Positions 6,144 through 54,919 of a stretch of DNA of 64,000 nucleotides are shown piece by piece (the stretch's first letter is position 1; each line of letters opens with the position of its first letter). The position numbers were made by a program, and so were the translations under genes. The notes under the pieces were generated by a model that saw nothing but the letters and a program-made list of their open reading frames with translations, had not been told where the DNA came from and searched no databases. The DNA is from an uncultured Gammaproteobacteria bacterium (GTDB lineage Bacteria; Patescibacteriota; Microgenomatia; UBA8517), in the NCBI GenBank assembly GCA_964435575.1, contig CAYSZS010000002.1, positions 762-64,761 on the forward strand, read 5' to 3'.

Positions 6144-6153
6144 TTTGTGCAAG

Positions 6154-7299: not shown

Positions 7300-7362
7300 G
7301 TTTGGAATTATATCAAAGAAGACTTCCTCCCACTCAAAGTTAGAAGCTAAATAAGCTTTTGG

Positions 7363-10195: not shown

Positions 10196-10249
10196 TTTGT
10201 TAAAAAGTTGTAAGCTTAAGCGGGCCTGCCCGCCGAAGCTTCAGCGTAG

Positions 10250-10323: not shown

Positions 10324-10381
10324 CTAGCATTAAGGGACAAGCTCTGCTTATAACGCCCCCAGCTGTGCGAAGAGAAGGAAG

Positions 10382-11329
10382 TTACTTTTCTTTTCCGACT
10401 ATAATGATTACGTCGTAAGTGGAGTCTTCTTCAAGAGTAGTATCGGATTTAACGACGTCATAAGTATCTGAAAGAGCACTCCTTATTTCATCAAAGACTT
10501 TTTCGGACAAATCTTTTTTTAGACTGATAGAAGTAGCGGTATAGTCGTATGACTGGGCATTTCCGGTTGTTATTTTATCTTCCATAAAACCACTTTCTGT
10601 GAGCAAATCTTTTGCCTTCCCCGCTACCCCTGCTGTTCCGGAGCCGTTAAGAACGCTGAGAGTTAGAGTGCTTATATCAACCTCTGTCTCCGGCTCCTGA
10701 GTCGGGCTGGGCGTTGAAGTTTCCTCCTTTTCAGGAGTTTCACTAATAGATTCCTCGCTAACCGATTGTTTATAATAGAAAATTCCTCCTACCAAAGCTC
10801 CCAAGATAAGAAGAATGATTAGAGTAAAAACTATAAACTTTGTATTTGGTCCGCCTTTTTTCTCTACCTCTTTTGTCGTATCCGGTCTGACTTCTTTGAG
10901 CCACTCTTTTATTTCGTCGGAGGATACATCCTCTTTCCCCTTTCCTTTTTCCTCGGTCATTTCTTGAGTAGGTGTTTCAGATTCAGACAGATCTTCCTTT
11001 TCCTTTTGAGGCTCCGGAGTTAGAACGCTTTCACTGGACTTGGCGGCACCCTCTGCTCCTGAAGCGATATCAGACGATTTTTGAGAATCAAGCTGACTAA
11101 ATGACGTTATTTTCGGAGTATCCTGAGAAGTTGATGCTCGAAGCTTGGTTTCTTCCTCATCTCTTGGTTTTGTTTCAGCTATACTTTCCGTAGATTCTTT
11201 CGCTGGAAGTTGAGTTTCAACTTCTTCCGGTTCTTCACTTATCTCCTCTACTTTTATTTTTGGTTTTGTCGCTTTGGTTTTATCAGCCATGCTTTTACCA
11301 TTGTGAAACATTTGGGGTTGCTTTGTCAA
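10382..11329 (-). CDS. LytR_C (LytR/CpsA/Psr C-terminal) domain protein with acidic disordered N-terminus and one TM segment
   Basis: C-terminal VLNGSGTAGVAGKAKDLL...GNA...TT pattern typical of LytR_C. E/S/T-rich low-complexity N-terminus. TM segment FIVFTLIILLILGALVGGIFYY. Confidence 0.55.
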   Translation of the reverse strand: MTKQPQMFHNGKSMADKTKATKPKIKVEEISEEPEEVETQLPAKESTESIAETKPRDEEETKLRASTSQDTPKITSFSQLDSQKSSDIASGAEGAAKSSESVLTPEPQKEKEDLSESETPTQEMTEEKGKGKEDVSSDEIKEWLKEVRPDTTKEVEKKGGPNTKFIVFTLIILLILGALVGGIFYYKQSVSEESISETPEKEETSTPSPTQEPETEVDISTLTLSVLNGSGTAGVAGKAKDLLTESGFMEDKITTGNAQSYDYTATSISLKKDLSEKVFDEIRSALSDTYDVVKSDTTLEEDSTYDVIIIVGKEK

Positions 11330-11370
11330 TACACCTGGGATTTGATAAAATACAAGGTGTAATTATTCAA

Positions 11371-11444
11371 GGTGGTGTGTGCCGAACGGTTTAGGCGCTG
11401 CTTTGTGGAGGCAGTTTTAGCGGGTTCGACTCCCGTACACCACC
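11371..11444 (+). tRNA. tRNA-His(GTG) with genomically encoded G-1
   Basis: Extra 5' G pairing with discriminator C (8-bp acceptor G-GTGGTGT/ACACCAC-C). Anticodon stem CTGCT/GGCAG with loop TTGTGGA. T-arm GCGGGTTCGACTCCCGT. Confidence 0.85.
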
Positions 11445-12353: not shown

Positions 12354-13217
12354 GTGAGACAAAAAGGTTTTGCACATTTATTTGTAATAATAGCAATTTT
12401 TATTATTGGTTTAGGAGGAGTAGGATATTCAATCTATAAAAAAACTACAGAAAGGAATCAAAGTCAACAAGTTTCTGAGACCATTCCAACAGAAGAAAAT
12501 CAAACACCCGCTTTGAGTCCAACCTCGGACCAAAAGCCGACTCCTTTGAGTAAACCAAAAATAACGTCTACAAATACACCCGTTCCAACTACACAATCTT
12601 ACAACGGAGTATGCGATGTAATCACACTTGCCGGATCAAATCCAAACGAGGTTGTACTTACATATAGTCTTACCTCCTCCGGTGGAAGGTACATGAAAGA
12701 GGCAAGATGGGATTTGAATAACGACGGACAATGGGATCATGATTTTAGCTCTTCAAATGCCCAAGTAACTACAAATTTAACTAGCGGCAATAGTAAAACT
12801 GTACGATTACAACTAAAACTCTCTGATAACACTTTTACTAACGCCTGTATAAAAAACATTTCTGCTCCATCTGGCACCTGGATTACCATCTGGGGTTATG
12901 TATTCTCGGATAATAATTGTAGCGGTTTTATGGACAGTTCAGAAAGTGGAATTGTAGATGTTCCCGTGAGGATCACCAAAATTTCAGACTATAGTACTTA
13001 TGGTACGACAAATACAGACGGCGGTGGAAAATTCTCTTACACCTCTCTTTTAAACGAACTTATAGAAATGACTGTAACAATGACTTCACCGTCGGGATAC
13101 AAAAGTCATCCCACCCACATTATAGGAAGCTCTCTAATGGGTTATGGAAAAAACACAAATGTTCAAATGAACATTCCTCAAGTTCCATACGCAAGTGTGG
13201 GTCAATGTAGTTTTTAA
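12354..13217 (+). CDS. Secreted/anchored hypothetical protein with a CarbopepD_reg/Cna-B-like beta-sandwich region
   Basis: N-terminal TM segment FAHLFVIIAIFIIGLGGVGY. T/S/P-rich linker. GYVFSDNNCSGF...TNTDGGGKFSY resembles a carboxypeptidase regulatory-like domain. Confidence 0.45.
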   Translation: MRQKGFAHLFVIIAIFIIGLGGVGYSIYKKTTERNQSQQVSETIPTEENQTPALSPTSDQKPTPLSKPKITSTNTPVPTTQSYNGVCDVITLAGSNPNEVVLTYSLTSSGGRYMKEARWDLNNDGQWDHDFSSSNAQVTTNLTSGNSKTVRLQLKLSDNTFTNACIKNISAPSGTWITIWGYVFSDNNCSGFMDSSESGIVDVPVRITKISDYSTYGTTNTDGGGKFSYTSLLNELIEMTVTMTSPSGYKSHPTHIIGSSLMGYGKNTNVQMNIPQVPYASVGQCSF

Positions 13218-13369
13218 GAAGTTACGAAAAATGGATAGACTTTTATATAAATAATATAATAAAACTGCTTTTCAATAGCTTCAAGCGAAACGCTAAATTC
13301 GATTTCTTTGTTCAAGAATAAGTCCTTTAGACGACTCAGGGATACAAGATTGTAAGGTTTATCTACAGG

Positions 13370-42188: not shown

Positions 42189-42392
42189 TTATCTTCTAAA
42201 CCGGTTAAGTATTAAAAAAAGTATTATGGATGCGATTAAAGAGCTTCCCAAGGGAATATAGATTCTTTTTTGGCCGATGTGGATATAAATGTCTCCCGGT
42301 AGCGTAAAAGGAATAGCTCCCCTTCTTTGTATTGCATAAATAAAGGCAGTACATATAAAGTAAAGAACGAAGAAAAATTCAAGTGCGCTCAT
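42189..42392 (-). CDS. DUF2905-like small membrane protein
   Basis: 67 aa, two TM segments with an LPGD motif. Confidence 0.4.
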   Translation of the reverse strand: MSALEFFFVLYFICTAFIYAIQRRGAIPFTLPGDIYIHIGQKRIYIPLGSSLIASIILFLILNRFRR

Positions 42393-42456
42393 ACTTAAAA
42401 TATATTAGCAAAAAAAGTTTTAACAAGTCCAGTAGTTGATAGCGACCTGATTATTA

Positions 42457-43308
42457 TTGTATATTTATTTAATGGAAGACCAAGAGCCAAAAATGACGCC
42501 GCAAAAAGGTGAAACGACAGTTCACCAAGAGCAACCTAGTCCAATGCCTAAAATGGACACCGAACCGCCGCAGTCTCCTGAGCCGTCGTCGCACTTTACT
42601 CCGCCATCTCTAAAAACCGGCTTGGGGTTTAGGATTTTTGTCATATTATCTTTAATTATTGTTGCGGCTATATATGGAGGAGTCGTATATCTTTATAGTC
42701 AAAATCAGAAAATCAAAAAAGGCGAGACAAGCGAAAATATTAACTCAAACTTAACTCCGACCTCCACTCCGACCCCGTCCTTCTCCCCCGATCAGGTTAA
42801 AATTAAAAACGGCAGTGTGGTTAGGGAAATTCCCGGCGGAGAAACAACTATTCTGGTTGATAAAGAAAATTACGATTCTACAGGCATAACAGGATTTGCA
42901 AAAGTTGTAGTCTCTCCCGATGAAACAAAAATTTGCTTTGAGTCCTGGCCGCCTGCGCCGGAACCTGCTTTATATATTGCCGATATAGACGGAAGTGAGG
43001 TGTCTGAAGTAAGTCCCAATAGGCAGAATTGTGTCTGGGTTCCCGACTCCCAAAAAATTATGTATGTCAACTCTTCTTCAAAAACGACCCCTGCCAATAT
43101 TTATCTATTTTCCCCGACCGATGAGGTAGAAACAAACTTAACCAAAGATAGCGTTAGCGAGGGAACAGTTAGGCGTTACGAGATTGTAGGATTCTCGGCA
43201 GACGGCGGGAAAATAATTTGTACTTACGAGGATGTGGGGGGAACTGATGAGGGAATGGGAGGAGAATGCGAAATAGACTTAAGTACCCTTGCGGTTAACT
43301 TCCTTTAA
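42457..43308 (+). CDS. Membrane-anchored periplasmic protein with Pro-rich N-terminus and PD40/WD40-like beta-propeller repeats
   Basis: TM segment FRIFVILSLIIVAAIYGGVVYLY. SPDETKICFES...LYIADIDGSE repeats. 3' end overlaps the convergent SipW-like gene by 30 nt. Confidence 0.4.
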   Translation: MYIYLMEDQEPKMTPQKGETTVHQEQPSPMPKMDTEPPQSPEPSSHFTPPSLKTGLGFRIFVILSLIIVAAIYGGVVYLYSQNQKIKKGETSENINSNLTPTSTPTPSFSPDQVKIKNGSVVREIPGGETTILVDKENYDSTGITGFAKVVVSPDETKICFESWPPAPEPALYIADIDGSEVSEVSPNRQNCVWVPDSQKIMYVNSSSKTTPANIYLFSPTDEVETNLTKDSVSEGTVRRYEIVGFSADGGKIICTYEDVGGTDEGMGGECEIDLSTLAVNFL

Positions 43309-43935
43309 ATAGTCAACTTCATTTTTAATTAGGTAAATTGAAGGCGCAGCTATAAAAATCAGAAATCCGGGGAGCGTTTTTAGGGCGACGTCGAAATAAC
43401 CCATAAAGGGGATGATTAATACAACTTTACCCAAGATTTCACTTCTTTTCACTCTTACCGGATCGGGTTGGGAATTCGCATCCCCTTTGGTTATAAAATA
43501 ACTTGCGTCTTTCTCATTGACTTTATCAATAATTCGATGGGTAACCGCTTTTCCGCTGACAAGGCTTGTTTTAGGGTTTACTTCTTTATAGGTTATAATG
43601 TCCTCTTTCGAGTAAGATAGAGAAGGTAACGAAACCACTATGCTTCCGGGATCAATTCCCGGCGACATTGAATTTGTGGTAATTGAAGAAATTCTGACGC
43701 CGCTAGCTTTTTCGGAATACTTGGTGAGTGTAAATACTGCAATTATTCCAAGATAAACAATAAAAAACGCCGGGATTAGATTTTCGAATACTCTTTCAAT
43801 ATAAAAATCGTATTCAAAGTCGATGGCGCGAATAATGATTTTTTTTATTTTCGGTTTTAGTTTATTCCAAAAAGAAAAAAACGTGTCCATAAACCCGTAT
43901 GAGTCGCGAAGATATTCGTAAGTGCTATAACGCAT
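43279..43935 (-). CDS. SipW-type (archaeal-like) signal peptidase I, S26 family
   Basis: N-terminal TM segment. TNSMSPGIDPGSIVV (Ser box), THRII (His), GDAN box. C-terminal TM segment. Confidence 0.7.
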   Translation of the reverse strand: MRYSTYEYLRDSYGFMDTFFSFWNKLKPKIKKIIIRAIDFEYDFYIERVFENLIPAFFIVYLGIIAVFTLTKYSEKASGVRISSITTNSMSPGIDPGSIVVSLPSLSYSKEDIITYKEVNPKTSLVSGKAVTHRIIDKVNEKDASYFITKGDANSQPDPVRVKRSEILGKVVLIIPFMGYFDVALKTLPGFLIFIAAPSIYLIKNEVDYLKEVNRKGT

Positions 43936-44040
43936 AATTTTGGGGCTATTATGAGGTTATTTAGAAGAAATTTCAAATACGTATTCCAGCAGACCGCTGA
44001 ATTTCTATGTATATGATAGATTATTTAATAATGAGAAAAT

Positions 44041-44697
44041 CTAGATAACCAAGTCTTTAGCCAGTTTCTTCGCCCGTTTTTTAAAAAACTTCTTCAGTTC
44101 ATTGAGAGTTAATGGTTTTAGCATTTTGGGTAAGTATTCAAACTCCTCAACTGCCAGAAAATCGGCAGCTAAAGTTAAAGGATCGCGTTCAGTCCGGAAT
44201 TTCACTTTTACCCCCTCAATTAGGTCCCACACAGTATATTCATCAAGTAAAAAGTAAAGATCAACGTAATCTTTGACTTCGCTACGCTGGTTCATGAGCA
44301 GCAGTTTATTAACAGCGATATCTAGTAGACTGTCTACCGTTACTTTTTTATAGCTAGTCCCTGGTTCTAATCTTTTGTATGGATAATATGCGAAGTCTAA
44401 TTTTAATTTCTTGCCGCCGTCAAAATTCAAGAGGTAAATAAAAGTGTCTTCTGCCCGTTGTGGTTGAATAGTAAACTTTAACTGCTTTCCCCATTCTAAA
44501 AGAAAGGAAAATAGCATTTGATTGTCAAACCTTTTATCTGCGAAGAAATCCAAATCAAGACTTTCACGATGTTTGAGATAGACTTCACTAAGTGCCGTTC
44601 CTCCTGAAAAGTAAAAGTTGTTGGTAAGAAAAGAGTTAGCGGCGATTTTTACGAAAATACTTTTCTGCTCTGGTGTCAGTATTGTTACTTCCCCCAT
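44041..44697 (-). CDS. AbiEii/DUF1814-like nucleotidyltransferase (putative type IV toxin)
   Basis: FSGGTALSEVYLKHRESLDLDF matches the pol-beta NTase GG...DxD motif of AbiEii. Confidence 0.55.
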   Translation of the reverse strand: MGEVTILTPEQKSIFVKIAANSFLTNNFYFSGGTALSEVYLKHRESLDLDFFADKRFDNQMLFSFLLEWGKQLKFTIQPQRAEDTFIYLLNFDGGKKLKLDFAYYPYKRLEPGTSYKKVTVDSLLDIAVNKLLLMNQRSEVKDYVDLYFLLDEYTVWDLIEGVKVKFRTERDPLTLAADFLAVEEFEYLPKMLKPLTLNELKKFFKKRAKKLAKDLVI

Positions 44698-44885
44698 ATT
44701 AGAAGGTTAAAAAGGCGTTTTTTACGAGGGAAAAGTTTTAACCTATCCCAATATTTCTTGACCTTAGAAAGTTCTATTTTTTCTCCTTTCTCCGGTCCAT
44801 AATTGATCGCACGTTCCAAAAGCATTATTCGTCCATGTTCAGACTTTGCGAGTTTTTTCGCATCATAATCCCAAATATATGTCAT
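44685..44885 (-). CDS. Small hypothetical protein, possible cognate partner of the AbiEii-like NTase
   Basis: 66 aa. Overlaps the start of the NTase gene by 13 nt (translationally coupled arrangement). Confidence 0.3.
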   Translation of the reverse strand: MTYIWDYDAKKLAKSEHGRIMLLERAINYGPEKGEKIELSKVKKYWDRLKLFPRKKRLFNLLIWGK

Positions 44886-45099
44886 AAGATAATTGTATAA
44901 CTTCGTAGCAAAAGAGGCAAATTCATGTGATGGTCGCCTACATTTAGTAAGGTCAATTATATAACTTAAAAAATGATGTTGTTTTATTTATTAAGTATCA
45001 GTTGACAGGGCAAAAATGTGATGTTAGTCTAAATATACATTTTTTCTTTCAGTTATATACGTCTCCTGCCCCGAGATTATTGTCCCATATTATAGTTTG

Positions 45100-46530
45100 A
45101 TGAAGAGAATTTTAATTTCTGTCATAACTTTAGGATTAGTAGCTGCTTTAGCGGTGAGTATAACAGGCTCCTTTTTTTCTGACACCGAAACGTCAAAAGA
45201 TAATATACTTCAGGCAGGAGAACTTGATCTAAAAATAGACAATACCAGTTATTACAACGGTAAACCCTATCCCGACGCATCGTGGGAACCCGATGATCTT
45301 CCAGGGCACCTTTTTTTTAATTTTCAGGATTTAAAACCGGGTGACTGGGGTGAAGATACAATTTCTTTGCGGGTTGACGATAACGACGCCTGGGCTTGTA
45401 TGAAAATAACCCATACCGAGGATGACGACGAGACTTGTAACGAACCAGAATTAAAAGACGATCCAACCTGTGATGATCCCGACGATGATAAAAAAGACGG
45501 AGAATTAGGGTCCCATCTTTCTTTTATCTTCTGGGTTGACGACGGAGATAATGTTTTAGAGAAAGATGAAGAAGAAGGAATAATAAGGCAACAGGATTTG
45601 GTTGGCAATGTTTTTGACGGAAAGATTATAAACCTCGCAGATGCATTGGGAGGAGTTTTGGGTTTAGCGGGACCGCTTGTGGGTAGTAAAACTTACTACA
45701 TCGGCAAAGCCTGGTGCTTCGGCGAAATGACTATTACTCCTCTTCCCGATAATACCGGTGTAAGTCCGGAAGTTGATTCGGGAATAAAATGCGACGGGGC
45801 TGAGCTGAATAACGAAACCCAAACAGACCAGGTTTTGGTCGATTTTGAATTTAGCGCTTATCAATCAAGAAATAATCCCAATTTTACTTGTTCAGGTGAA
45901 AAACCGTCAGGTACTCCAACCCCGACATTAACACCCACTCCCCCGCTCGCCTGTAATAAGGCAGATGTAATGCTCGTTCTCGATAGATCGGGAAGTATTA
46001 GTTCTACGGAGCTTGTGCAATTAAAAACTGCTGCTAAGGATTTCGTTGATTCTTTGACACTGGCTTTGGACGGAAATCACGCAGGAAAATCAAGTTTTGC
46101 AACAACAGGAACTTTAAATCATCACTTGACGAGCGATCCCACTAGTCTCAAGGCAGCAATTGACGCAATGATTTCAGGTGGCTGGACGAACCTTAAAGAA
46201 GGCATTGACCTTGCAAAAACGGAGTTGGATAATCCAGGCGATGGACATGACAGAGCCGATGGTGTCTCCCTTGACAAGATGATTGTCATCACAGACGGTA
46301 ATCCTAATAGACCACTAGACGGTGATCCCCCACCTGACGTAGATGCAAAAAATGCAGCTGATGTAGCAAAAGCAGCCGGGGTAGAAATCTTTGTGGTTGG
46401 AGTTGGCAGCGATGTTGATGCTACTTATCTAACAAACGATATAGCAACTGCTGGAGCTGGTCATTATTATTCCGCATCAGATTACTCAGGCTTACAGACA
46501 ATTCTTTCCGGACTTGATCTTTGCGATTAA
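45100..46530 (+). CDS. TasA/camelysin-like secreted protein with SipW-cognate signal peptide and C-terminal vWA (MIDAS) domain
   Basis: N-terminus MKRILISVITLGLVAALAVSITGSFFSDTETS..N.LQAGELDL. Core FNFQDLKPGDWGEDTISL, FWVDDGDNV, YYIGKAWCFGE. PT-linker, then DRSGSIS...ITDGNPN vWA. Confidence 0.7.
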   Translation: MKRILISVITLGLVAALAVSITGSFFSDTETSKDNILQAGELDLKIDNTSYYNGKPYPDASWEPDDLPGHLFFNFQDLKPGDWGEDTISLRVDDNDAWACMKITHTEDDDETCNEPELKDDPTCDDPDDDKKDGELGSHLSFIFWVDDGDNVLEKDEEEGIIRQQDLVGNVFDGKIINLADALGGVLGLAGPLVGSKTYYIGKAWCFGEMTITPLPDNTGVSPEVDSGIKCDGAELNNETQTDQVLVDFEFSAYQSRNNPNFTCSGEKPSGTPTPTLTPTPPLACNKADVMLVLDRSGSISSTELVQLKTAAKDFVDSLTLALDGNHAGKSSFATTGTLNHHLTSDPTSLKAAIDAMISGGWTNLKEGIDLAKTELDNPGDGHDRADGVSLDKMIVITDGNPNRPLDGDPPPDVDAKNAADVAKAAGVEIFVVGVGSDVDATYLTNDIATAGAGHYYSASDYSGLQTILSGLDLCD

Positions 46531-46537
46531 TTACATA

Positions 46538-46786
46538 ATGAGATTGGATAGCGAAGAACACCAAACTTCAGTAGAAAAACGGGAAATGTGGAGGCGAGAA
46601 TTATTTTCAATGGCTCCATATTTATATAAACATCCGGAAAATAAAGATTTGCAAAAGTACGGAGCAATTCTTACAGATATTGTAAGACAGATTGAATGGG
46701 GAGGGGTTTACCCTATTGATTACAGTGGCGGTAAAGGAAATGTTATTTTCAATTTTGAAACGGGTGAATTTCGTACTCTGGATTAA
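46538..46786 (+). CDS. Small hypothetical protein inside the tasA-like locus
   Basis: ~82 aa; no motif. Confidence 0.3.
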   Translation: MRLDSEEHQTSVEKREMWRRELFSMAPYLYKHPENKDLQKYGAILTDIVRQIEWGGVYPIDYSGGKGNVIFNFETGEFRTLD

Positions 46787-46915
46787 ACCCTTACGAAATT
46801 ACTTTTACCTTTTGCATAACCAATTAATATTTTAAATGGTTCTATAAGGGGTAAAAACCCTTAATAGCCAAGCTTTTACTAAAAAAGCCTCTGGATTAGA
46901 TTGTTGGTGAAAAAG

Positions 46916-47845
46916 ATGAAGAAAATTTTATTAAGTTTATTTGTAATTGGTGTCGTATCAGTAGCAGGAGTCCTCGCAACCCGAGCATTTTTCAGTGATA
47001 CCGAGACATCAGTCGGCAATACATTCGTAGCCGGAGACATTGATCTACAGATTGATAACGAAAGCTATGCAATAGACTGTACTATTCCTGACGGAGACGG
47101 TAATCCTCCAGCAGAATGTAAAGGTGTACTGGCAGCAAGCTCTAATACGTCATGGCAGCTTACCGACTTAACAGTTGAGAAGTTTTTTGACTTTGTAGAC
47201 CTTAAACCGGGAGATTATGGCGAAGACACAATATCCGTTCACGTCGGAAGTAATGATGCTTGGGTTTGTGCCTCAGCCCGTATTACGGAAGATCAAGACA
47301 ATTCCTGTACAGATCCTGAACAAACAGATGAATTAGTTGCTTGCGTTAATCCAAATGGAAACGGAGAGCTTGATGAAGACCTAAATTTCGCTTTCTGGGT
47401 TGACGATGGAGATAACGTATTTGAAGCTTGTCCAGAGGGAACGGGTGAATGTGAGGATGAAAAAGTCTTTTTATTGGGGCCTCTCGAAGGACTAGGTACT
47501 CAAGGACAAATCGCTCTTGCTGATACCCAAGGCGGTGTACTTGGTGCAGGAAATCCTATCCCTGGCGATACAACTTTCTATATAGGTAAAGTGTGGTGTT
47601 TTGGAGAATTAACTCCTGAACCCAAAGATTCTCATGATGTGCAGGGAGCTCCTATCAACGGAACTCCAGTCGAAAGGGGAACCGGTTGGCTTTGTGATGG
47701 GACACTAGTTGATAACGCTGCTCAAACTGACAGTGTTGTTGGTGATTTACAATTTTATGCAGAACAGGCAAGACATAATGATGAGTTTTTGTGTAGTAAA
47801 GATTACGAACCTGTTTGGCCTACGCCAACACAAACATCTGATTAG
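46916..47845 (+). CDS. TasA/camelysin-like secreted protein with SipW-cognate signal peptide; Cys-rich
   Basis: MKKILLSLFVIGVVSVAGVLATRAFFSDTETSVGNTFVAGDIDLQIDN. FDFVDLKPGDYGEDTISV, FWVDDGDNV, FYIGKVWCFGE. SD GGTGA 5 nt upstream. Confidence 0.7.
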   Translation: MKKILLSLFVIGVVSVAGVLATRAFFSDTETSVGNTFVAGDIDLQIDNESYAIDCTIPDGDGNPPAECKGVLAASSNTSWQLTDLTVEKFFDFVDLKPGDYGEDTISVHVGSNDAWVCASARITEDQDNSCTDPEQTDELVACVNPNGNGELDEDLNFAFWVDDGDNVFEACPEGTGECEDEKVFLLGPLEGLGTQGQIALADTQGGVLGAGNPIPGDTTFYIGKVWCFGELTPEPKDSHDVQGAPINGTPVERGTGWLCDGTLVDNAAQTDSVVGDLQFYAEQARHNDEFLCSKDYEPVWPTPTQTSD

Positions 47846-47865
47846 TTTTTTTCTCTAGCGTTTTA

Positions 47866-47936
47866 GGGTGGGGTCAAAGAGATAAATGAGTTTCGACTCG
47901 GAACTCTCTTGCCCACCCAAGCTAGGGGACTTTTTT
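47866..47936 (+). terminator. Possible intrinsic terminator after tasA-like gene 2: long imperfect hairpin GGGTGGG..AAGAGA/TCTCTTG..CCCACCC followed by a T6 run 12 nt downstream
   Basis: Read directly; the T-run is not immediately adjacent, so this is weak. Confidence 0.3.
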
Positions 47937-47985
47937 GCAAAAGATACTAAGCAAAATTAGCTCCTTTCCGAGTGAAACTCTATAA

Positions 47986-48092
47986 GATGCTCATAAGGAG
48001 TAATCAAATTAGGGTCACGGTTAGATAGACCCGTTAGATACAAAGTTATCTAACTTGGGTCATCTAACGTGATTCCGTTTGATGCTCATAAG
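47986..48092 (+). promoter_or_regulatory. Structured regulatory region upstream of tasA-like gene 3: direct repeats GATGCTCATAAG (x2, 95 bp apart) bracketing an array of GTTAGATA (x2 direct) and TATCTAAC/ATCTAAC (x2 inverted) with GGGTCA repeats
   Basis: Read directly. Confidence 0.4.
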
Positions 48093-48130
48093 AGCTATCA
48101 AACCGGAAGGAGGTGAATATATTTAAAATT

Positions 48131-49315
48131 ATGAAAAAAGCTCTATTGAGTTTATTTACTATTGGTGTAATTGGTTTAGTTGTTGTTGCTGTAACACAGT
48201 CCTTTTTCTCCGACACCGAGACTTCGACCGGAAACGTTTTAACCGCTGGAGCTATTGATTTAAAGATAGATAGCGAGTGTACATATAATGGAGAAAGATC
48301 AGAACAGTGTGGCACTTGGGGTCCGGTTGATTTAACAAACGAAAAGTTTTTCAACTTCTTTGACTTGAAACCCGGAGATTATGGCGAAAACACAATAAGC
48401 TTAGACCTTTCCAGTAATCCCGCACACGCTTGCGTAATTGTCGAAAACATGCAGGATGATGATCTGGGTCTGACCGAGCCGGAAAGCGAAGATGGGGATG
48501 TTAGCGACGGTCCTTTTTACGGAGAATTATCTTCCGAACTTCGCTTTTTCACTTGGGCCGATAACGGTCCAGAGCAAAATTCTTGCGATAACGTATGGCA
48601 AGAAGGGGAACTTCCATTGTTTTCTAATGCCGAAGGTCCTGCAAGCGATGTATTGGATGGGAGAAGTTATTACCTTGGAAAGCTAGATCCGGGGAAAAGC
48701 TGTATAGGTGTTTACTGGTGTTACGGGACAATGGCGGTTGGTCCGGGAAACGCCTTGAGTTGTAACGGAGCGCCTGTAAATAACGTTTCACAAACTGATG
48801 CTCTTACCGCCGATATAAGGTTTTATGTAGAGCAATACAGAAATAATCCTAACTTCGTTTGTCCTCTTCCTGAAAAGAGGCTTGTGCTGGAAAATAAAAT
48901 TCCAGATGTCTGGACAGTAATAGAAGATAATAGGTCTGCGACATTAACATGGGCGGGCGACGGTCCAACATTTGACTTCAGCTCTACGCTTATTGCACAA
49001 GGACTGGAGGCAAATACAAAATACAGCTTGATTTATTATGCAGATCCTTGGGAGGGAGATAATCCGGGAGCATTTCTAGGTACTGGTATTTCAAATGGAA
49101 GCGGTGATCTTACTATCGCAGGTAATGTCAACTTAGGTTTTGATTTACCGCATCCATCTGATGCCAACTATCCGACCGGAGCAAAAATCTGGCTAGTATT
49201 GGCAAGTGATTATAATAGCGGTCTGGAATTAACCGGGCCGATGACCGGATGGCAGCCTACAAGGTACTTATTTGAGACAAAGCTGATCAGGTACGACGAT
49301 ACGGATGCGCCTTAA
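48131..49315 (+). CDS. TasA/camelysin-like secreted protein with SipW-cognate signal peptide and ~170-aa C-terminal extension
   Basis: MKKALLSLFTIGVIGLVVVAVTQSFFSDTETSTGNVLTAGAIDLKIDS. FNFFDLKPGDYGENTISL, YYLGK, CYG. NVSQTDALTADIRFYVEQYRNNPNFVC. Confidence 0.7.
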   Translation: MKKALLSLFTIGVIGLVVVAVTQSFFSDTETSTGNVLTAGAIDLKIDSECTYNGERSEQCGTWGPVDLTNEKFFNFFDLKPGDYGENTISLDLSSNPAHACVIVENMQDDDLGLTEPESEDGDVSDGPFYGELSSELRFFTWADNGPEQNSCDNVWQEGELPLFSNAEGPASDVLDGRSYYLGKLDPGKSCIGVYWCYGTMAVGPGNALSCNGAPVNNVSQTDALTADIRFYVEQYRNNPNFVCPLPEKRLVLENKIPDVWTVIEDNRSATLTWAGDGPTFDFSSTLIAQGLEANTKYSLIYYADPWEGDNPGAFLGTGISNGSGDLTIAGNVNLGFDLPHPSDANYPTGAKIWLVLASDYNSGLELTGPMTGWQPTRYLFETKLIRYDDTDAP

Positions 49316-49463
49316 ATATTTTTCTAGCCGCTGCCCGGCTGGAGAAAAATCCGTATCAGGTACAGAAGATATAGACCGAAGCGTGGGAGATTTTATATGG
49401 TATATCAAGAAGGCGAGCCGTCTATTACTTTGAGAGGAAATTTACTCGAACAAGCCGCAATAG

Positions 49464-49693
49464 CATAATCAACATCCGATGTTGTTTAGCTTGTAACATC
49501 GGGTATTGATGAAAAGATTATATATTTATGAAAATAAGTAAGTTTATACAAAATACTTTAATCGGGTTTCTTTGTATAGTCTTCTTCATTTTTTCAGCAT
49601 TAGCAACATATCTTCTATTAGATTTATTTAAGTTTAATTTACCGATATTGCAACGTAATCAATATCCGATTTTGAATACATTTGAATATCGGG
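49464..49693 (+). mobile_element. Miniature non-autonomous (MITE-like) derivative of the IS200-like element at 18405-19197: both terminal motifs present, no transposase
   Basis: LE CATAATCAACATCCGATGTTGTTTAGCTTGTAACATCGGG. RE CCGATATTGCAACGTAATCAATATCCGATTTTGAATACATTTGAATATCGGG. Matches the IS ends at ~80% identity. Confidence 0.55.
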
Positions 49694-51234
49694 ATATTAA
49701 GCTCCCTAAAGCCTTTATCGTCCAGTCGGGTTCAATGGAACCTGCTATTAAAACCGGAAGCATTGTCATAACTAAAAAGGAAGAAATCTATAATCAGGGA
49801 GAAATAATTTCCTATACAAAGGGTTCGAAAAATATCATAACTCACAGAATTCAAGTCAAAAACTATCCTGACGGTATCAATTCTGATCCAGTCTATTTAA
49901 CTGCCGGAGACGCCAACGAGGATTTTGATTCAGGAAGTATAACCAGTGAACAGATAGTAGGTAAGGTCGTTTTGACACTCCCCTATTTGGGCTACGTTGC
50001 CGACTTTGCCAAACAGCCCTACGGCTTTTTGCTTTTGGTCATAGTTCCGGCGACAATTGTTATTTACGAAGAGTTAAAGGGTTTATTAAAGGAAATCTTT
50101 AAAACATTATCTATCATGAAAAGAAAGCTATTTCGTCGTAAGGGTCGTACCCTTAAGTACGACTTAAAGGGTACGACCCTCAAGGCTAAAAACAACGGTC
50201 TGCCTAAAGCTAGTGCAATAGTTCCGATTTTCGGTGCAGCACTTGTTTTTACCGGTCTCGCCTCGTCCTTCTTCTCCGACATAGAAATTTCAATAGGAAA
50301 TTTATTTCAGGCAGGTGATTGGAGTCCCCCCATTGCACAAACATTAGTAATAAATGAAGTATTGTACAAAACAAATTGCACTGTACCTCAAAATAAACAA
50401 TGGATTGAGATATGGAACGGTTTTGATTTCACGGTTAATCTCCAGGATTGGAGTTTAAGAGATGGAGAAGGAAACACAATTCAAATAATTAATTCTGTAA
50501 CTCCCCTCGCCCCCGGAAAATTCGCATTATTGTCCAAATCAAGCGCAACATGGAACGACCAATGTTACGGACCGCTCCTTAGTGATGTTGTTCAAGTCCA
50601 ACTAGGTGGGACAATAAATATTGCAACAGAATCTGGAGCATTTAAATTATTAGATAGCAATCTTGATATCGTAGATGAGGTTTTCTATGGTCCTGACCCT
50701 GCATCAGCAAGTGCCGGTCTTAACTTCTCGTTTGAAAGGGAAGTTTTAGGCCAAAAAACCGGCGGAGTATTTAATGCAATTGATTTTTCTGAAAGAAAAC
50801 CATCAATAGCAGGTTTTGCAATACCTCAAAATCAGGATGTAGTTATTAATGAATTCATCGTCCACGATGGCGGTACCGGACTGGGTAATGATTGGGTTGA
50901 ACTTTATAACAAAACGGGCAGCAGTGTTGACATAAGTGGATGGACTCTCCGTGATACAACCGGTATTTTTCACACTGTTCCAGCTTCCACAACTTTATTA
51001 AATGGCGACTGGTACACTGTTTACAATAGTTCAAACAGACTCGGAAATAGTGGCGACAAAATTTATTTATTTGATTCTGGTAGTAATTTAAAAGATGGAA
51101 TCTCATATTTTCAGTTCTTGCCATCGGTTGGTAGTTCTGTTGGAAGAAATACAGATGGTGGTAACGCTTGGTCAGTTTTTACAGTTCCAACAGATGATAA
51201 TACTAATATAAATCCGACATCACCTTGGCCATAA
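49528..51234 (+). CDS. In-frame fusion: SipW-type signal peptidase I (res 1-196) fused to a protein with SipW-cognate signal peptide and two lamin-tail domains (LTD)
   Basis: SGSMEPAIKTGSIV, ITHRIQ, GDAN, TM segment. Internal MKRKLFRRKGR...IVPIFGAALVFTGLASSFFSDIEISIGNLFQAG (ATG at 50116, same frame, no intervening stop). LTD1 VINEVLY...WIEIWN...WSLRD. LTD2 VINEFIV...WVELYN...WTLRD. Confidence 0.65.
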   Translation: MKISKFIQNTLIGFLCIVFFIFSALATYLLLDLFKFNLPILQRNQYPILNTFEYRDIKLPKAFIVQSGSMEPAIKTGSIVITKKEEIYNQGEIISYTKGSKNIITHRIQVKNYPDGINSDPVYLTAGDANEDFDSGSITSEQIVGKVVLTLPYLGYVADFAKQPYGFLLLVIVPATIVIYEELKGLLKEIFKTLSIMKRKLFRRKGRTLKYDLKGTTLKAKNNGLPKASAIVPIFGAALVFTGLASSFFSDIEISIGNLFQAGDWSPPIAQTLVINEVLYKTNCTVPQNKQWIEIWNGFDFTVNLQDWSLRDGEGNTIQIINSVTPLAPGKFALLSKSSATWNDQCYGPLLSDVVQVQLGGTINIATESGAFKLLDSNLDIVDEVFYGPDPASASAGLNFSFEREVLGQKTGGVFNAIDFSERKPSIAGFAIPQNQDVVINEFIVHDGGTGLGNDWVELYNKTGSSVDISGWTLRDTTGIFHTVPASTTLLNGDWYTVYNSSNRLGNSGDKIYLFDSGSNLKDGISYFQFLPSVGSSVGRNTDGGNAWSVFTVPTDDNTNINPTSPWP

Positions 51235-51279
51235 ATTACGCTATACATTTGTATTCATGTATTAATACATAGAAACATT

Positions 51280-52446
51280 ATGATAAAGATTAGAAAAATC
51301 AGAGCCATGGGAATAAGAAGGATTAGTGCAATTCTTCTTCTGCCGTTTGTTTTAGTGGGAACATTTCTTGTGTATAAAAATTCCCAAATTACAAGATATG
51401 CTTATGGGGAGGGCGACCCTTTGATTTTAACCTATGATCCTGAGGGTCCTCTTCCTGATCCACCCATGTTTGTTGTCACCAATATGCTCCCGGGTGACTC
51501 TAAAACAAAGGACTTTAATGTCAAAAATGCATCAACTGAGGATGAGTCGGTTACTATGGATTTTATCAAAACTGACGAGGAAAAAGATTTTGCTAACATA
51601 TTGGATGTAGAAGTAACAGAACTTCCCTCAACCGTTATCTTTCAAGGCAAACTTCAGGCTCTTTTTGACGCTCCCCTGTTTAACCTTGGCAACTTCCCTG
51701 CCGGAAGCGACAAAAGTTTCAGAGTCAAAGTAAAATTCCCGGAGAATGCAGGAAATGAGTACCAAAATGCCATGGTCATGTTTGATATAAAATGGCAAAC
51801 AGAACAACCCGAAATAGAAATCCCTGAAGACTGTTCATTTTTGGAATCAGGAATTACCAGGGTTGTTGAAGGAACAGAGGGCAATGACTTCATTATTGGT
51901 AACAAGGAATCTGAGTTATTCATTCTAAAAGGCGGTAACGATATAGTTTTTGGAGGTAAAGGCAACGATATAATCCTCGGAGGCGAGGGTAACGACCCTA
52001 GGCTTGACGGGAGTGACGGAAATGATTGCATTATAGGAGGCCCAGGTAATGACCATCTTGACGGGAGTGATAATAATGATGTTCTTTTCGGAAATGAGGG
52101 AAATGATAACCTTGACGGTGGCGGTAATGATGATCTGATAAAGGCAGGTACAGGAAACGACAATGTAGACGGCGGAGCAGGAAATGACGTAATTTACGGC
52201 GAGGAAGGAAACGATAATATTGAAGGCGGAAGCGGGAATGACAACATTTGGGGAGGAATTGGTAACGATACTATAAAAGGAGAAAGCGGAAATGATAATT
52301 TATATGGAGAAGAAGGGAATGATAACCTACAGGGAGGAAGCGGTATGGACTTTTTGGATGGCGGAGCCGATACGGACACTCTTCATGGAGGTTCAAGTAC
52401 GGATACCTGTGTCAACGGAGAATCAAATACTTCCTGCGAGCTCTAG
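51280..52446 (+). CDS. Secreted protein with TasA-like beta-sandwich region followed by RTX-type calcium-binding nonapeptide repeats
   Basis: Signal-anchor. FVVTNMLPGDSKTKDFNVKNAS (TasA-like core). About 14 GGxGNDxLx repeats (GGNDIVFGGKGNDIILGGEGND...). Confidence 0.65.
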   Translation: MIKIRKIRAMGIRRISAILLLPFVLVGTFLVYKNSQITRYAYGEGDPLILTYDPEGPLPDPPMFVVTNMLPGDSKTKDFNVKNASTEDESVTMDFIKTDEEKDFANILDVEVTELPSTVIFQGKLQALFDAPLFNLGNFPAGSDKSFRVKVKFPENAGNEYQNAMVMFDIKWQTEQPEIEIPEDCSFLESGITRVVEGTEGNDFIIGNKESELFILKGGNDIVFGGKGNDIILGGEGNDPRLDGSDGNDCIIGGPGNDHLDGSDNNDVLFGNEGNDNLDGGGNDDLIKAGTGNDNVDGGAGNDVIYGEEGNDNIEGGSGNDNIWGGIGNDTIKGESGNDNLYGEEGNDNLQGGSGMDFLDGGADTDTLHGGSSTDTCVNGESNTSCEL

Positions 52447-52571
52447 CGCCTTATTTCTGCGACAAACTTCCTCTTGATTTTATATTTTTAGATGTTAATA
52501 CTTAATAATTCGTAAAAAAAGACCCGCCTATGATTTCAAAGCTATGGCGAGGCGAAGGGTGGTGAATAAAT

Positions 52572-52781
52572 ATGAAAAATGTAAAAGGAGCAATTGACCA
52601 TTTAAAAACACACCAAAGTTACCCGGCGACTAAAGAAGAGCTTCTTGCGGAGTGCGACAATCTTTCCGATTTTTCTGATGAGGATAAAGAGTGGTTTAAG
52701 GCAAATCTTCCGGAAGAGCCAGAAGGCGGATTTAAATCGGCAGATGAAGTAATAAAAGCTCTAAGTTTGTCTGAAGAATAA
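52572..52781 (+). CDS. DUF2795 family small protein
   Basis: 69 aa; HLKTHQSYPATKEELLAECDNL... pattern typical of DUF2795. Confidence 0.45.
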   Translation: MKNVKGAIDHLKTHQSYPATKEELLAECDNLSDFSDEDKEWFKANLPEEPEGGFKSADEVIKALSLSEE

Positions 52782-52792
52782 TATCAGTAAAT

Positions 52793-53476
52793 TCAAGCTG
52801 CGTAAGCTTGTTGTTTTTCTTTACTTATAATTAAACCTTCTTTCTCTAGTTTTTTCATGCTATTTATAATAAAAGTGTGATGTTCACAAGAGATAATCTT
52901 TTTATTAACTAATTTCATTAGGGCAAGGCTGGCCGTTTCTCTGGAAATTCCTGCGATATTTGCGATATCTTGATGCGTTAAAGGCAGATTTATTGCAATT
53001 TTTCCATCCTGCACGCGTTCTCCAAACCTTTTTGCAGAAAGATAAATAGCGCCGATTACTCTTTTATGTGCGTTTCCGCATAGCATGTATTCGATATTTG
53101 CGAGTACCCCGTCCAAACCTACCAATATTCTTCGAGTCAGTTCAAAAAGAACGTCCGGATTTTCTTTAAGATAAGTCAGAACTACACTTTTTGGGGCTCT
53201 GTGAATAATCGTATCAGTTTGAGCTTGGAAAAAGTAAGAATTTGGAATTCCAGCTATAACCCACATCATGGGGAAATAGGTTCCGGGTTTAAAAATGTTC
53301 AAAGTGAGTTCTCTGCCGTTTTCGAAAATTGTATTTAATTTAACAAACCCTTCCTTTATATAGTAAACGCCTTGGGGTTTGTCTTCGGGACGAAGGATTG
53401 TTTGATTTTTTTTATAGGATATAGTTTTATATTTTGAGAAAAAGCTCCTTAACTTTCCAGGTACGTAATTCTCCAT
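52793..53476 (-). CDS. Crp/Fnr family transcriptional regulator
   Basis: N-terminal cNMP-binding beta-barrel and C-terminal HTH (ISRETASLALMKL). Confidence 0.75.
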   Translation of the reverse strand: MENYVPGKLRSFFSKYKTISYKKNQTILRPEDKPQGVYYIKEGFVKLNTIFENGRELTLNIFKPGTYFPMMWVIAGIPNSYFFQAQTDTIIHRAPKSVVLTYLKENPDVLFELTRRILVGLDGVLANIEYMLCGNAHKRVIGAIYLSAKRFGERVQDGKIAINLPLTHQDIANIAGISRETASLALMKLVNKKIISCEHHTFIINSMKKLEKEGLIISKEKQQAYAA

Positions 53477-53608
53477 TTTTTAAAGTATACGCTTTGTTAG
53501 AAATTTAACAAATAATAAGTTAGTTTTCTAACTGAAATATTTAATCGGACTATATACCGTGTAAAAGTGATTGCTTCATAAAAATCTAAGAGAAAGGGGG
53601 TGAAAATT

Positions 53609-54919
53609 ATGATCAAAAAAATAATTGCAGGAGCAACTGCTGGACTTGCCGGCACTTTACTTTTTGCAGGTCTAGTATTCGCTTTGGTTGGTGATTTACT
53701 CGATACAGTAGGTCTTCCCGGAAACGATAATTGTTCCGTGGCAGGAACCTTTACAGGCACATATTATATGACCATGGAGGGTGGATTCGCAGTAGGTTGT
53801 GCTGGAAATCAGCTCCAAATCTATACTCCTCCTGCGCCCGACGTCGTACCGGGTCTTCCGCCTGATCCTGCGACATTGGTGTCCACACAGACTGTGCTTG
53901 ATGCCGGCGGTAACGCCGTCAACATCAGCGCTTTAGCCTGGGATCCGACAAGGAACAAGGTCTGGGGAGCTTACGACGATAACGTCTATCTCATAGACAT
54001 CGTTGACCCGACTGTCGACGGAAATGCAACAGCAACTTTGCAGTTTAGTCCGTCGGTAAACGCACCAGTAGCAGAAGTTGATCCGTTCGATCTTTTTGGT
54101 AAATTACCAGGAATTACTTTGGTTGACGGGTTAGCCTATGATGGCAACGACGATACTGTCTGGTACACACCGGATGTCCACTGCAATGTTTATCACTTCG
54201 CCTCAGACGGGACATACATTGGTAAAGTAACACCCGAAAACGCAGCGGGTAATTCTGACTGTTCAGTAAGCGGGGTTGTAGTTGGTTCTGCTAACTCACT
54301 CTACATTGGTAGAAACGGTAATAATGAGATAAGAAGAGTTGATAAAACAACAGGAGATTTTATTTCCAATTTCGCTACAACTGCCGGACGGGTTGAGGAC
54401 TTAACTTGCGATCCTGTAACATATGCGCCAAAAGAAGCTGTATTGGCAAAGGACGCATTTAATGTCCTTTACGAAGCCTTTGAAGTGGAAGAGGGCACTT
54501 GTCCATTGCCTGAGCCGAAAGATGAGACGCCTCCAAAGGCTGCCTGTACCGAAACGGTTAATCCTCATGGAGCAACCGTTCCTCCTGCAGGTAAGACTAC
54601 ATTGCCTGGTCCAAGAGGTGGAGATAATGAAGACGGATTCTATGAGCTTTTTGCTGCCGATAACTTGCCGGGTGTAACGATTTGGGTTTCTGACGCATTC
54701 GGTAGCGGTCCTTTCGGACCATTCTTACCAGGAGATAAGGTTAAGATTACCGAAGCACCGGGCGGACCCGCTTCCTCGAAAGCAATGGGAAGTAGTAATG
54801 GTCAAGCAGGGGCAATTCTAACCCACATTACGCTTTTGGGTGACGCTCTGATAACAGCAATAGATGCCGCAGGTAATGCGACAGTTGTAAGTTGTTTGGT
54901 TCCGCCGCCACCGAAATAA
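53609..54919 (+). CDS. Secreted hypothetical protein (G/A/T/D/V-rich, Cys-containing); the gene is visibly more GC-rich than its surroundings
   Basis: SD AAGGGGGTG 6 nt upstream of ATG at 53609. N-terminal hydrophobic signal. No recognisable catalytic motif. Confidence 0.45.
   Translation: MIKKIIAGATAGLAGTLLFAGLVFALVGDLLDTVGLPGNDNCSVAGTFTGTYYMTMEGGFAVGCAGNQLQIYTPPAPDVVPGLPPDPATLVSTQTVLDAGGNAVNISALAWDPTRNKVWGAYDDNVYLIDIVDPTVDGNATATLQFSPSVNAPVAEVDPFDLFGKLPGITLVDGLAYDGNDDTVWYTPDVHCNVYHFASDGTYIGKVTPENAAGNSDCSVSGVVVGSANSLYIGRNGNNEIRRVDKTTGDFISNFATTAGRVEDLTCDPVTYAPKEAVLAKDAFNVLYEAFEVEEGTCPLPEPKDETPPKAACTETVNPHGATVPPAGKTTLPGPRGGDNEDGFYELFAADNLPGVTIWVSDAFGSGPFGPFLPGDKVKITEAPGGPASSKAMGSSNGQAGAILTHITLLGDALITAIDAAGNATVVSCLVPPPPK

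Follow-up and report, generated by a model that had tools for sequence, protein, structure and literature searches.

Extracellular filament systems that combine TasA-superfamily subunits with a TIGR02228-type signal peptidase, minor subunits, a tip and an anchor have been described in Bacillus and for the Tafi, ABP and AbpX systems (PMC9674648; PMC12337348; bioRxiv 10.64898/2026.01.04.697558). Residues 28-38 of TasA act as a donor strand (PMC9674648), and the N-terminus of TapA, which is similar to that of TasA, donates the first strand (PMC9674648; PMC10151520). In AbpX-like proteins, calcium-mediated donor-strand complementation reportedly depends critically on an aromatic residue at position 1 and an acidic one at position 4 (bioRxiv 10.64898/2026.01.04.697558), and Tafi has a tip and a jelly-roll membrane anchor, TafF, which consists of a membrane helix plus a jelly-roll (PMC12337348). 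Patescibacteria were listed by Wang et al. among the phyla with matches to PF12389 (PMC9245690), and a RefSeq-based survey of AbpX reported Bacillota, Actinomycetota, Chloroflexota and archaeal phyla, with no representatives of the candidate phyla radiation (CPR; bioRxiv 10.64898/2026.01.04.697558). The present analysis concerns a locus of TasA-like genes at positions 43279-52446 of a 64,000-nucleotide stretch of DNA (GenBank assembly GCA_964435575.1, contig CAYSZS010000002.1, positions 762-64,761; the whole stretch is called the window) from a Woesebacteria-like host (Microgenomates, Patescibacteria).

A preliminary description of this DNA had pointed to a locus of SipW-type signal peptidases and TasA-like secreted paralogs with adhesin-like modules. 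The predicted genes are all present as open reading frames (ORFs) upon ORF calling, and the peptidase matches, the N-terminal motif and the vWA, lamin tail domain (LTD) and RTX modules were all found. Such a gene set very likely specifies a TasA-type secreted fibre system with a dedicated peptidase. A fuller reading, in which this is a TasA-superfamily extracellular fibre system served by its own archaeal/endoplasmic reticulum (ER)-type signal peptidase, with its parts acting as proposed below, is probable, whereas the assignment of particular roles (nucleator or cap, terminator or anchor) is tentative. The genes concerned are the following:

43279-43935, minus strand: SipW-A, a stand-alone archaeal/ER-type signal peptidase I of 218 aa (TIGR02228), divergent to the paralog genes.
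45100-46530 (ORF from 45097), plus strand: paralog 1, 477 aa, a TasA-like core (residues ~1-285) with a C-terminal vWA domain (nucleotides 45964-46506).
46916-47845 (ORF from 46901), plus strand: paralog 2, a core-only TasA-like subunit of 309 aa from the ATG (314 aa from the longer start).
48131-49315 (ORF from 48113), plus strand: paralog 3, 394 aa (400 aa from the longer start), a TasA-like core with a C-terminal module of ~140 aa.
49528-51234, plus strand: SipW-LTD fusion, a single ORF of 568 aa (TIGR02228 and PF00932).
51280-52446, plus strand: RTX protein, 388 aa, with an N-terminal hydrophobic helix, a minimal TasA-like domain (~51409-51804) and RTX repeats (~51835-52428).

The three paralogs are 44-47% identical among themselves and 53-66% identical to hundreds of proteins from Patescibacteria. 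At E<=1e-3, database relatives of paralog 2 number 1331; the best 120 of these are 53-66% identical to it and ~290-310 aa long or longer, and those with names are all from Patescibacteria. An exhaustive profile search for the core family returned 4004 cluster representatives at E<=1e-3, of which 872 reach E<=1e-30. The family hidden Markov model (HMM) covers residues 1-285 of paralog 1 and also matches paralog 3, and throughout the family the core is invariably N-terminal, with C-terminal extensions that bring protein length up to ~900 aa. The paralogs are acidic (14-18% Asp+Glu) and have 8-10 cysteines each, four of which are invariant family-wide. Many family members are labelled by JGI as 'predicted ribosomally synthesized peptide with SipW-like signal peptide', and one as 'Ca-activated chloride channel homolog', which look like misleading names for structural proteins of 300-600 aa from Patescibacteria.

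The homology of these parts to known ones is weak but specific, as HMM searches of the kind proposed in the preliminary description revealed for both N-termini and cores. The SipW-dependent signal model TIGR04088 (cutoff 19) accepts paralog 2 at 21.5 bits, and paralog 3 falls just under at 16.8 bits. With the TasA/camelysin model PF12389 (cutoff 22.5), the N-termini of paralogs 1 and 2 score 19.8 and 18.5 bits, both below the cutoff, and paralog 3 has no match; a precomputed PF12389 match is carried by many orthologs of the paralogs. When the paralog family profile was compared with PDB sequences, no TasA was found and the sole match was a chance one to RuvC, and therefore fold comparison was needed to assess the likeness to TasA. 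The paralog core is predicted with confidence to be a TasA-like jelly-roll, and the structural comparison with TasA suggested at the outset bore out the resemblance: the best solved-structure match of the predicted fold is the TasA fibre, and the best structural matches are all donor-strand filaments.

At their C-termini the paralogs differ. Paralog 1 carries the vWA domain anticipated in the preliminary description (PF00092, 6.3e-23 over residues 290-470), with a metal-ion-dependent adhesion site (MIDAS) motif, DRSGS, at residue 296. The Cys-rich module that had been assigned to paralog 2 does not exist, because this protein is a bare core whose cysteines sit in core loops. The C-terminal module of paralog 3 has no family matches, and its C-terminal 88 aa have no Pfam match. 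Among 124 paralogs, the C-terminal extensions contain SpaA-like prealbumin domains (34 and 14), vWA (9) and Reelin-B (7), and also DUF642, MopE, beta-helix, CBM60, MAM and F5/8C modules. Thus, the core is constant and the displayed module is interchangeable. Paralog 2, the bare core and the best conserved of the three, is a likely candidate for the major subunit.

The most strongly conserved feature of the family lies at the predicted mature N-terminus, where all three tandem paralogs have a signal peptide followed by FFSDTETS..GN....AG, in agreement with the SipW-cognate signature first noticed in them. The relevant segments are as follows:

45172-45222, plus strand: FFSDTETSKDNILQAGE, the predicted, donor-strand-like mature N-terminus of paralog 1, placed by the consensus of 120 family members.
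46988-47038, plus strand: the equivalent predicted donor-like segment of paralog 2.
48203-48253, plus strand: the equivalent predicted donor-like segment of paralog 3.

The consensus of the 120 paralogs reads G-A-T-G-A before the cut and F-F-S-D-T-E-T-S-T-G-N-T-F-x-A-G-x-I-D-L-x-I-D-N after it. Conservation before the cut is 92% for T(-3) and 90% for A(-1), and after the cut it reaches 95% for F1, 92% for F2, 98% for D4, 98% for E6, 99% for S8, 98% for N11 and 98% for G16, making FFSDxExSxGNxFxAG near-invariant. Judging from the alignments, conservation that continues 16-24 residues past the predicted cut exceeds what a signal peptidase reads. The invariant positions recur inside 60 peptidase fusions. 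The segment corresponds to the TasA donor strand, shares with AbpX-like donor strands the aromatic position 1 and the acidic position 4, and its 14 residues are the only low-confidence stretch of the monomer model (predicted local distance difference test, pLDDT, <50). The P2' Phe of TasA is reported to hamper LepB (PMC10269814), and so the aromatic P1' and P2' residues seen here would fit a need for a dedicated peptidase.

Two such peptidases are encoded in the locus, both of which had been credited with archaeal-type Ser and His hallmarks. TIGR02228, the model for archaeal-type signal peptidase I, scores 83.5 bits for SipW-A and 83.2 bits for the N-terminal third of the fusion (cutoff 51.85), and the Bacillus SipW equivalog model NF046067 is not reached by either (63.8 and 91.6 bits versus a cutoff of 190). 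The two enzymes are of the same type as Bacillus SipW, yet not its orthologous equivalogs. In alignments of 17 and 60 homologs, His106, Asp128 and Asp134 never vary and Ser69 is conserved to at least 90%, and the SM..P, THR and GDAN..D motifs of SipW-A align with the catalytic residues of the fusion. Among PDB sequences, the only relatives of the fusion-family profile are human SEC11C and SEC11A (E 2.7e-13 and 6.7e-12), with SGSMEP, HR and GD.N aligned, and the predicted peptidase fold matches SEC11C (Foldseek E 9.6e-5, TMt 0.59, 29% identity). The archaeal/ER type, with catalytic Ser and His rather than Ser and Lys, is confirmed by the agreement of TIGR02228, the conserved residues and the SEC11 sequence and fold matches. 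Loss of the catalytic Ser and His would have spoken against the original idea, and both peptidases retain Ser, His and Asp. The fold matches to the peptidase domain also include Streptococcus pyogenes SipA (4n31), a signal-peptidase homologue required in pilus polymerisation, which is a reminder that such domains can serve as assembly chaperones; in the present locus the catalytic residues are intact.

Conservation of the gene neighbourhood was assessed by scanning one genome per GTDB species, with loci retrieved using paralog 2 as bait. Relatives are encoded on 327 stretches, and all informatively named records belong to Patescibacteria (Woese-, Levy-, Kaiser-, Zambryski-, Taylor-, Yonath-, Nomura-, Portnoy-, Lloyd- and Moraniibacteria and Paceibacteria). 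Several metagenome-assembled genomes with the locus are named 'uncultured Gammaproteobacteria' or 'uncultured Saccharibacteria'; these names look like placeholders and were not relied on. For 82 non-redundant loci, ORFs were called and scored with HMMs built from the alignments of this analysis. Tandem paralogs number one in 9 loci, two in 31, three in 34 and four in 8. A peptidase gene follows the paralogs directly on the same strand in 72 of the 82 loci, and the remaining 10 stop at a contig edge right after the last paralog, so that the arrangement holds in 72/72 informative loci. The neighbourhood check suggested in the preliminary description therefore reveals very strong, phylum-wide conservation of the operon.

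The peptidase stands alone in 36 loci, is fused to an LTD in 18 and is fused to another extension of at least 260 aa, often holding the internal motif, in 19. In 17 loci the LTD has a gene of its own after the peptidase, and in one Kaiserbacteria locus (L008) the two genes overlap by 8 nucleotides. A close relative of the present locus (L002) has two paralogs, a peptidase-LTD fusion and an RTX protein, in that order, behind the same flank of RuvC and superoxide dismutase genes; it has no SipW-A, AbiE genes or vWA paralog. Orthologs of SipW-A, on the minus strand, are present in two Woesebacteria loci (L009 and L012). In the Chisholmbacteria locus (L004/L005), a sortase gene (12721-13278, minus strand) directly follows TasA-like, SipW-LTD and LTD genes, and a 1650-aa CLIPPER/SpaA_2 surface protein is encoded upstream.

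The second peptidase (49528-50115) and the LTD protein were originally taken to be separate genes, a view that has to be corrected. The region 49528-51234 is one uninterrupted ORF of 568 aa, and another metagenome contig, from an independent assembly, encodes a 100%-identical protein. The same architecture is found in more than 100 proteins, 400-580 aa long, of Woesebacteria, Chisholmbacteria, Gottesmanbacteria and unnamed Microgenomates, so the fusion is real. Between peptidase and LTD, all of the fusions have a basic linker, a hydrophobic helix and the motif S-x-S/FFSDxExSxGNxFxA (the slash marks the predicted cut), and in 60 fusion sequences this motif always has D251 and N258, with E253, S255 and A262 conserved to at least 90%. 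A strict regular expression for the donor motif in LTD-type proteins recovered 9 sequences only, and alignments were used instead. The LTD is present in two copies (PF00932, 1e-28; 50332-51207). An AlphaFold2 (AF2) model of the fusion (pLDDT 78.7) resolves the domains and three transmembrane (TM) helices clearly. Features by nucleotide position, and then by residue in the AF2 layout, are:

~49699-50091, plus strand: peptidase domain, with Ser69, His106, Asp128 and Asp134.
50206-50277, plus strand: TM3, a hydrophobic helix after the basic cytoplasmic linker.
50269-50319, plus strand: internal cleavage and donor motif of FFSD type, predicted from the motif, with ASS before the cut and FFSDIEISIGNLFQAGD after it.
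Residues 2-33: TM1.
Residues 61-151: peptidase domain.
Residues 164-205: TM2.
Residues 207-225: disordered Lys/Arg-rich loop.
Residues 227-250: TM3.
Residues 251-264: disordered segment, which is the FFSD motif.
Residues 270-560: two Ig-like domains.

The Ig-like domains match lamin tail domains or lamin Ig-folds (Foldseek probability 1.0), and the donor-like segment adjoins the LTD directly, with no jelly-roll in between. In the modelled topology, the active site and the internal cleavage site are both set outside the membrane. In the product of the gene that follows the peptidase in Parcubacteria (L008 13989-15698, L076 11502-13187, L019 6875-9163 and similar), a long basic N-terminus on the cytoplasmic side leads into a TM helix and the donor motif, and a small TasA-like domain and an LTD come next. 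This Parcubacteria LTD protein is thus a complete subunit whose signal region is unusually long; in other loci, a protein of this kind is peptidase-fused.

The RTX protein had been counted as a fifth substrate with a TasA-like core. The core is confirmed by the N-terminal 197 aa, which reach 27.3 bits with PF12389 (24-27.3 across scans; cutoff 22.5), and the RTX assignment by PF00353 (5.7e-38) and nine GxGxD units. The FFSD motif is absent, and thus the SipW-type motif is present in four proteins of the locus, namely paralogs 1-3 and, internally, the fusion, rather than in five. The protein is probably no substrate of a type I secretion system, because it has an N-terminal hydrophobic signal and no genes for such a system lie near it.

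Together with 18 homologs from related loci, the RTX protein forms a distinct 'minimal' class. The profile of this class matches TasA (8aur_A) by sequence at E 7e-4, via the motifs N(M/L)(L/K)PGD and GNEYQ...F.L; compared by hhalign with the paralog family, only the PGD motif was aligned, at 82% probability, which is no proof of full-domain homology. Cleavage sites are of the canonical A-x-A type (for example, AYA/VGDL or VFA/AGTIDVSF), and the distance from cleavage site to PGD strand is 16-22 residues, versus 27 in mature TasA. By this sequence comparison, the N-terminal shortfall equals the length of the 11-residue TasA donor strand (residues 28-38; PMC9674648). The C-termini carry RTX repeats in 11 loci (the present one included), an LTD in 3 and 1-5 TM helices in 7, and the gene is the last of the operon in many loci. 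TM-tailed members (L019 9166-10650, L052 16395-17888, L076 13168-14316, L083 14963-16537, L086 14107-15369 and, on the minus strand, L012 7824-8495) stem from Parcubacteria and one Woesebacteria locus. Their tails suggest a membrane-anchor role for the class.

A mechanism can be proposed from these parts, in which fibre formation and attachment are deduced by homology. The paralogs would be exported by Sec and then cut by the SipW-type peptidase after T-x-A, exposing FFSDxExSxGNxFxAG. The exposed segment would act as donor strand and complete the jelly-roll of the adjacent subunit as in TasA, giving a polar fibre. Paralog 2 would supply the bulk of this fibre, and paralogs 1 and 3 would insert subunits that display the vWA/MIDAS or another module. 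The fusion would thread from TM1 through the peptidase (outside), TM2, the basic loop (inside) and TM3 to the cleavage site (outside), and cleavage in cis or in trans would free a pair of LTDs that have a donor segment in front of them and no jelly-roll after that segment. Such a donor-only piece could fill the first groove and accept no strand, as a TapA-like nucleator or distal cap. The comparison with TapA would be one of analogy and not of family membership, since the body has a different (lamin Ig) fold. The RTX protein would accept the last donor strand and terminate the fibre, because its groove-bearing core lacks ~11 N-terminal residues, and in this locus the fibre would be anchored either by the RTX beta-roll or by the N-terminal helix, left uncleaved as in TafF. 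The minimal class is most likely the cell-proximal anchor, given that relatives end in TM helices and that TafF combines a membrane helix with a jelly-roll, and with such an anchor the fibre would grow tip-first, at the membrane that holds the peptidase. A dependence on calcium is suggested by the acidic composition, the DDGDN-type loops and the RTX repeats. The likely use is adhesion to a host cell or surface, or matrix formation.

Several points weigh against this proposal or narrow it. The structure predictions cover monomers, and the cleavage sites throughout are motif-based predictions. In the AF2 model of the fusion, the cleavage segment is disordered and undocked from the active site, and self-cleavage in cis is for that reason a supposition that modelling does not support. 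The RTX protein of the window has no C-terminal TM helix, so its anchor role is extrapolated. The donor-only interpretation is restricted to fusions of the Microgenomates type, since the LTD protein of Parcubacteria includes a small TasA-like domain. Also, the conservation values of the three paralogs (48.6%, 46.2% and 39.0%), which are biased by the use of paralog 2 as the query in locus retrieval, do not clearly single out any major subunit.

These weaknesses leave some room for other explanations. It is conceivable, if unlikely, that the paralogs have only a SipW-dependent export signal in common and work as monomeric adhesins, secreted or on the surface, or make up a matrix or coat that is not fibrous; the N-terminus would then serve as a recognition element for the peptidase and not as a donor strand. 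The FFSD motif lies at the cleavage site and could be kept for the peptidase alone, each paralog has a binding module of its own, the similarity to TasA is distant, and the models are of monomers. Such a view has to contend with conservation extending well past signal peptidase reading, in the same stretch that is the donor strand in TasA, and with best structural matches that are without exception donor-strand filaments. A donor segment with no core (in the fusion) and a core with no donor (in the RTX class) are also hard to explain for monomers.

More improbable is that the peptidases are housekeeping signal peptidases and that the genes for secreted proteins are clustered by chance or by co-regulation only. 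CPR genomes are reduced, SipW-A is set apart on the opposite strand, and no LepB-type motif was found within the 64-kb window, which covers part of the genome only. Yet a peptidase placed right after the paralogs in every informative locus, across many classes, and fused to a protein with the same motif in about half of loci, argues for a dedicated enzyme. The names Peptidase_M73 (Pfam) and, at JGI, the ribosomally synthesized peptide label might lead one to camelysin-type (M73) metalloproteases or to precursors of ribosomally synthesised peptides, a very remote prospect. No protein of the locus contains an HExxH motif, the products are folded multidomain proteins of 300-480 aa with a confident jelly-roll model, and TasA/camelysin proteins are now seen as fibre subunits (PMC9674648; PMC10151520); both readings were rejected, on the missing HExxH and on protein size and folding. 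Separate, overlapping genes for the two parts in Parcubacteria could raise the suspicion that the peptidase-LTD fusion is an assembly or sequencing artefact caused by a lost stop codon. This is scarcely credible for an uninterrupted ORF whose identical product occurs in an independent assembly and whose homologs in many genomes have the same architecture with conserved linker and TM3, and it was likewise rejected. Of all these readings, a TasA-type fibre system with its own peptidase best accounts for the locus.

The surroundings of the locus include several further genes. Base composition is similar to that of the remainder of the window, and a promoter and terminator scan of 42300-52800 gave counts that match shuffled expectation and are uninformative on operon structure or on the major subunit. 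Upstream genes encode RuvC, a SurA-like protein, an Fe/Mn superoxide dismutase and a DUF2905-like protein, a flank shared with related loci. One additional gene lies between SipW-A and paralog 1:

44041-44697, minus strand: AbiEii-family nucleotidyltransferase toxin gene (PF08843, 2.4e-16).

A 66-aa ORF overlaps the start of the AbiEii gene (region 44041-44885, minus strand); it has no Pfam match and is far shorter than typical AbiEi antitoxins. Because the syntenic close relative has neither, the pair looks like a toxin-antitoxin insertion into the fibre locus. Directly upstream of the locus (42457-43308, plus strand) is a gene whose 283-aa product has an N-terminus rich in Pro, Thr and Ser, a single TM helix and a weak match to a TolB-like beta-propeller (TIGR02800, 3e-05). 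A 332-aa homolog occupies the same place in the close relative, and the protein may or may not be a member of the system. The gap between paralogs 1 and 2 is 370 bp, without explanation apart from a 90-aa ORF (46514-46786, plus strand) that overlaps the end of paralog 1, lacks family matches and is probably no gene. Just downstream are a Crp/Fnr-type regulator (52793-53476, minus strand; cNMP_binding and HTH_Crp_2) and, adjoining it, a gene for a 439-aa secreted-looking protein with no Pfam or NCBIfam match (53600-54919, plus strand). The downstream neighbours in L002 and L006 differ and comprise an ECF sigma factor, a DUF5667 protein and a small secreted protein. Elsewhere in the window, 12 tRNA genes (Rfam RF00005, 44-74 bits) lie at 829-11444, an unusually dense set for the first ~11.4 kb.

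A central open question about ultrasmall CPR bacteria is how they attach to hosts and surfaces, and type IV pili have dominated its discussion so far. The present type of locus occurs in hundreds of species-level genomes of Microgenomates and Parcubacteria, and a highly conserved subunit (45-66% identity across classes) combined with genome-variable adhesin modules is the pattern expected of an attachment organelle. The gene set probably encodes a surface-fibre or attachment system that is widespread and unstudied, yet of a generally known type. A broader idea, which is doubtful for now, is that Patescibacteria at large have a second filament system beside type IV pili, calcium-dependent, linked by donor strands and growing tip-first, in which the peptidase would free a donor-only LTD nucleator at the secretion site by self-cleavage, newly cut subunits with swappable modules (vWA, SpaA-like, CBM and others) would be added below it, and a donor-less subunit with a TM anchor, RTX repeats or an LTD would close and anchor the fibre; if true, this TasA-type fibre could be a main determinant of host or surface attachment in these episymbionts. 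The analysis yields testable parts, including a defined cleavage and donor motif and candidate cap and anchor subunits, and with the peptidase-substrate fusion, cis-processing by an ER-type signal peptidase could be tested on a natural example. The TasA superfamily also gains a large, distinct bacterial subfamily that was missed by RefSeq-based surveys.

Comparison with other filaments helps to place the system. Chaperone-usher pili (with FimH or PapG as tip adhesin and PapH as terminator) provide a functional analogy only: they are polar fibres linked by donor strands, in which one two-domain terminal subunit has a groove and no donor strand, and another terminal piece closes the chain. There is no homology and no chaperone or usher here, the envelope is monoderm, and the donor strand would be exposed by a signal peptidase. 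Gram-positive sortase pili, which have vWA tip adhesins and SipA/LepA-type peptidase homologues, likewise carry vWA/MIDAS and SpaA-like (CnaB-type) modules on their subunits and devote a protein of signal-peptidase fold to pilus assembly (4n31, among the fold matches mentioned above). They differ in that the present locus has no isopeptide-pilin core, the window has no sortase, LPxTG is absent from all of its ORFs, and the peptidases keep their catalytic residues.

The archaeal pili compared were Tafi (TafA/E pilins, TafD peptidase, TafC tip and TafF anchor), ABP (AbpA/AbpB) and the AbpX loci. These share with the CPR system, as it is proposed here, major and minor subunits, a dedicated TIGR02228 peptidase, a tip protein, a jelly-roll membrane anchor, a donor strand with an aromatic residue at 1 and an acidic residue at 4, and calcium involvement. 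Fusions of the peptidase to accessory domains (DUF5305) are also known, whereas in the present system no DUF5305 partner was seen and the peptidase is joined to a substrate-like LTD protein that has a cleavage site of its own. Further differences are the bacterial host (Patescibacteria), export by Sec rather than Tat, C-terminal adhesin modules on the subunits, and a distinct core subfamily whose profile fails to reach archaeal or Bacillus sequences.

The tapA-sipW-tasA operon of Bacillus subtilis and the sipW-tasA/calY genes of B. cereus are similar in encoding a dedicated archaeal/ER-type signal peptidase with its substrates, and these substrates have a common signal peptide and a conserved mature N-terminus (TIGR04088). 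Both systems have a jelly-roll subunit core with (N/D)LKPGD and N.YQ...F.F..Q motifs, and an accessory protein with a donor-like N-terminus on an unrelated Ig-type body (TapA there, the LTD protein here) that is translationally coupled to the peptidase. The CPR core is ~60 aa larger, Cys-rich, very acidic and 13-17% identical, and it occurs in three subunit paralogs with vWA or other modules. Where Bacillus has overlapping genes for the peptidase and the nucleator-like protein, the CPR locus has the two fused, and there are an additional donor-less RTX subunit and a second peptidase gene. The preliminary description had not recognised a described system. Its general scheme is in fact known from Bacillus, Tafi, ABP and AbpX, and in the literature searched, the remark on distribution in PMC9245690 is the only passage that brings SipW, TasA or camelysin together with CPR, Patescibacteria, Parcubacteria, Microgenomates or Saccharibacteria; a description of the CPR-specific form was not found. 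Its large distinct core subfamily, its peptidase fused to a substrate-like protein with its own cleavage site, its modular adhesin C-termini and its RTX-, LTD- or TM-tailed donor-less class all appear to be new.

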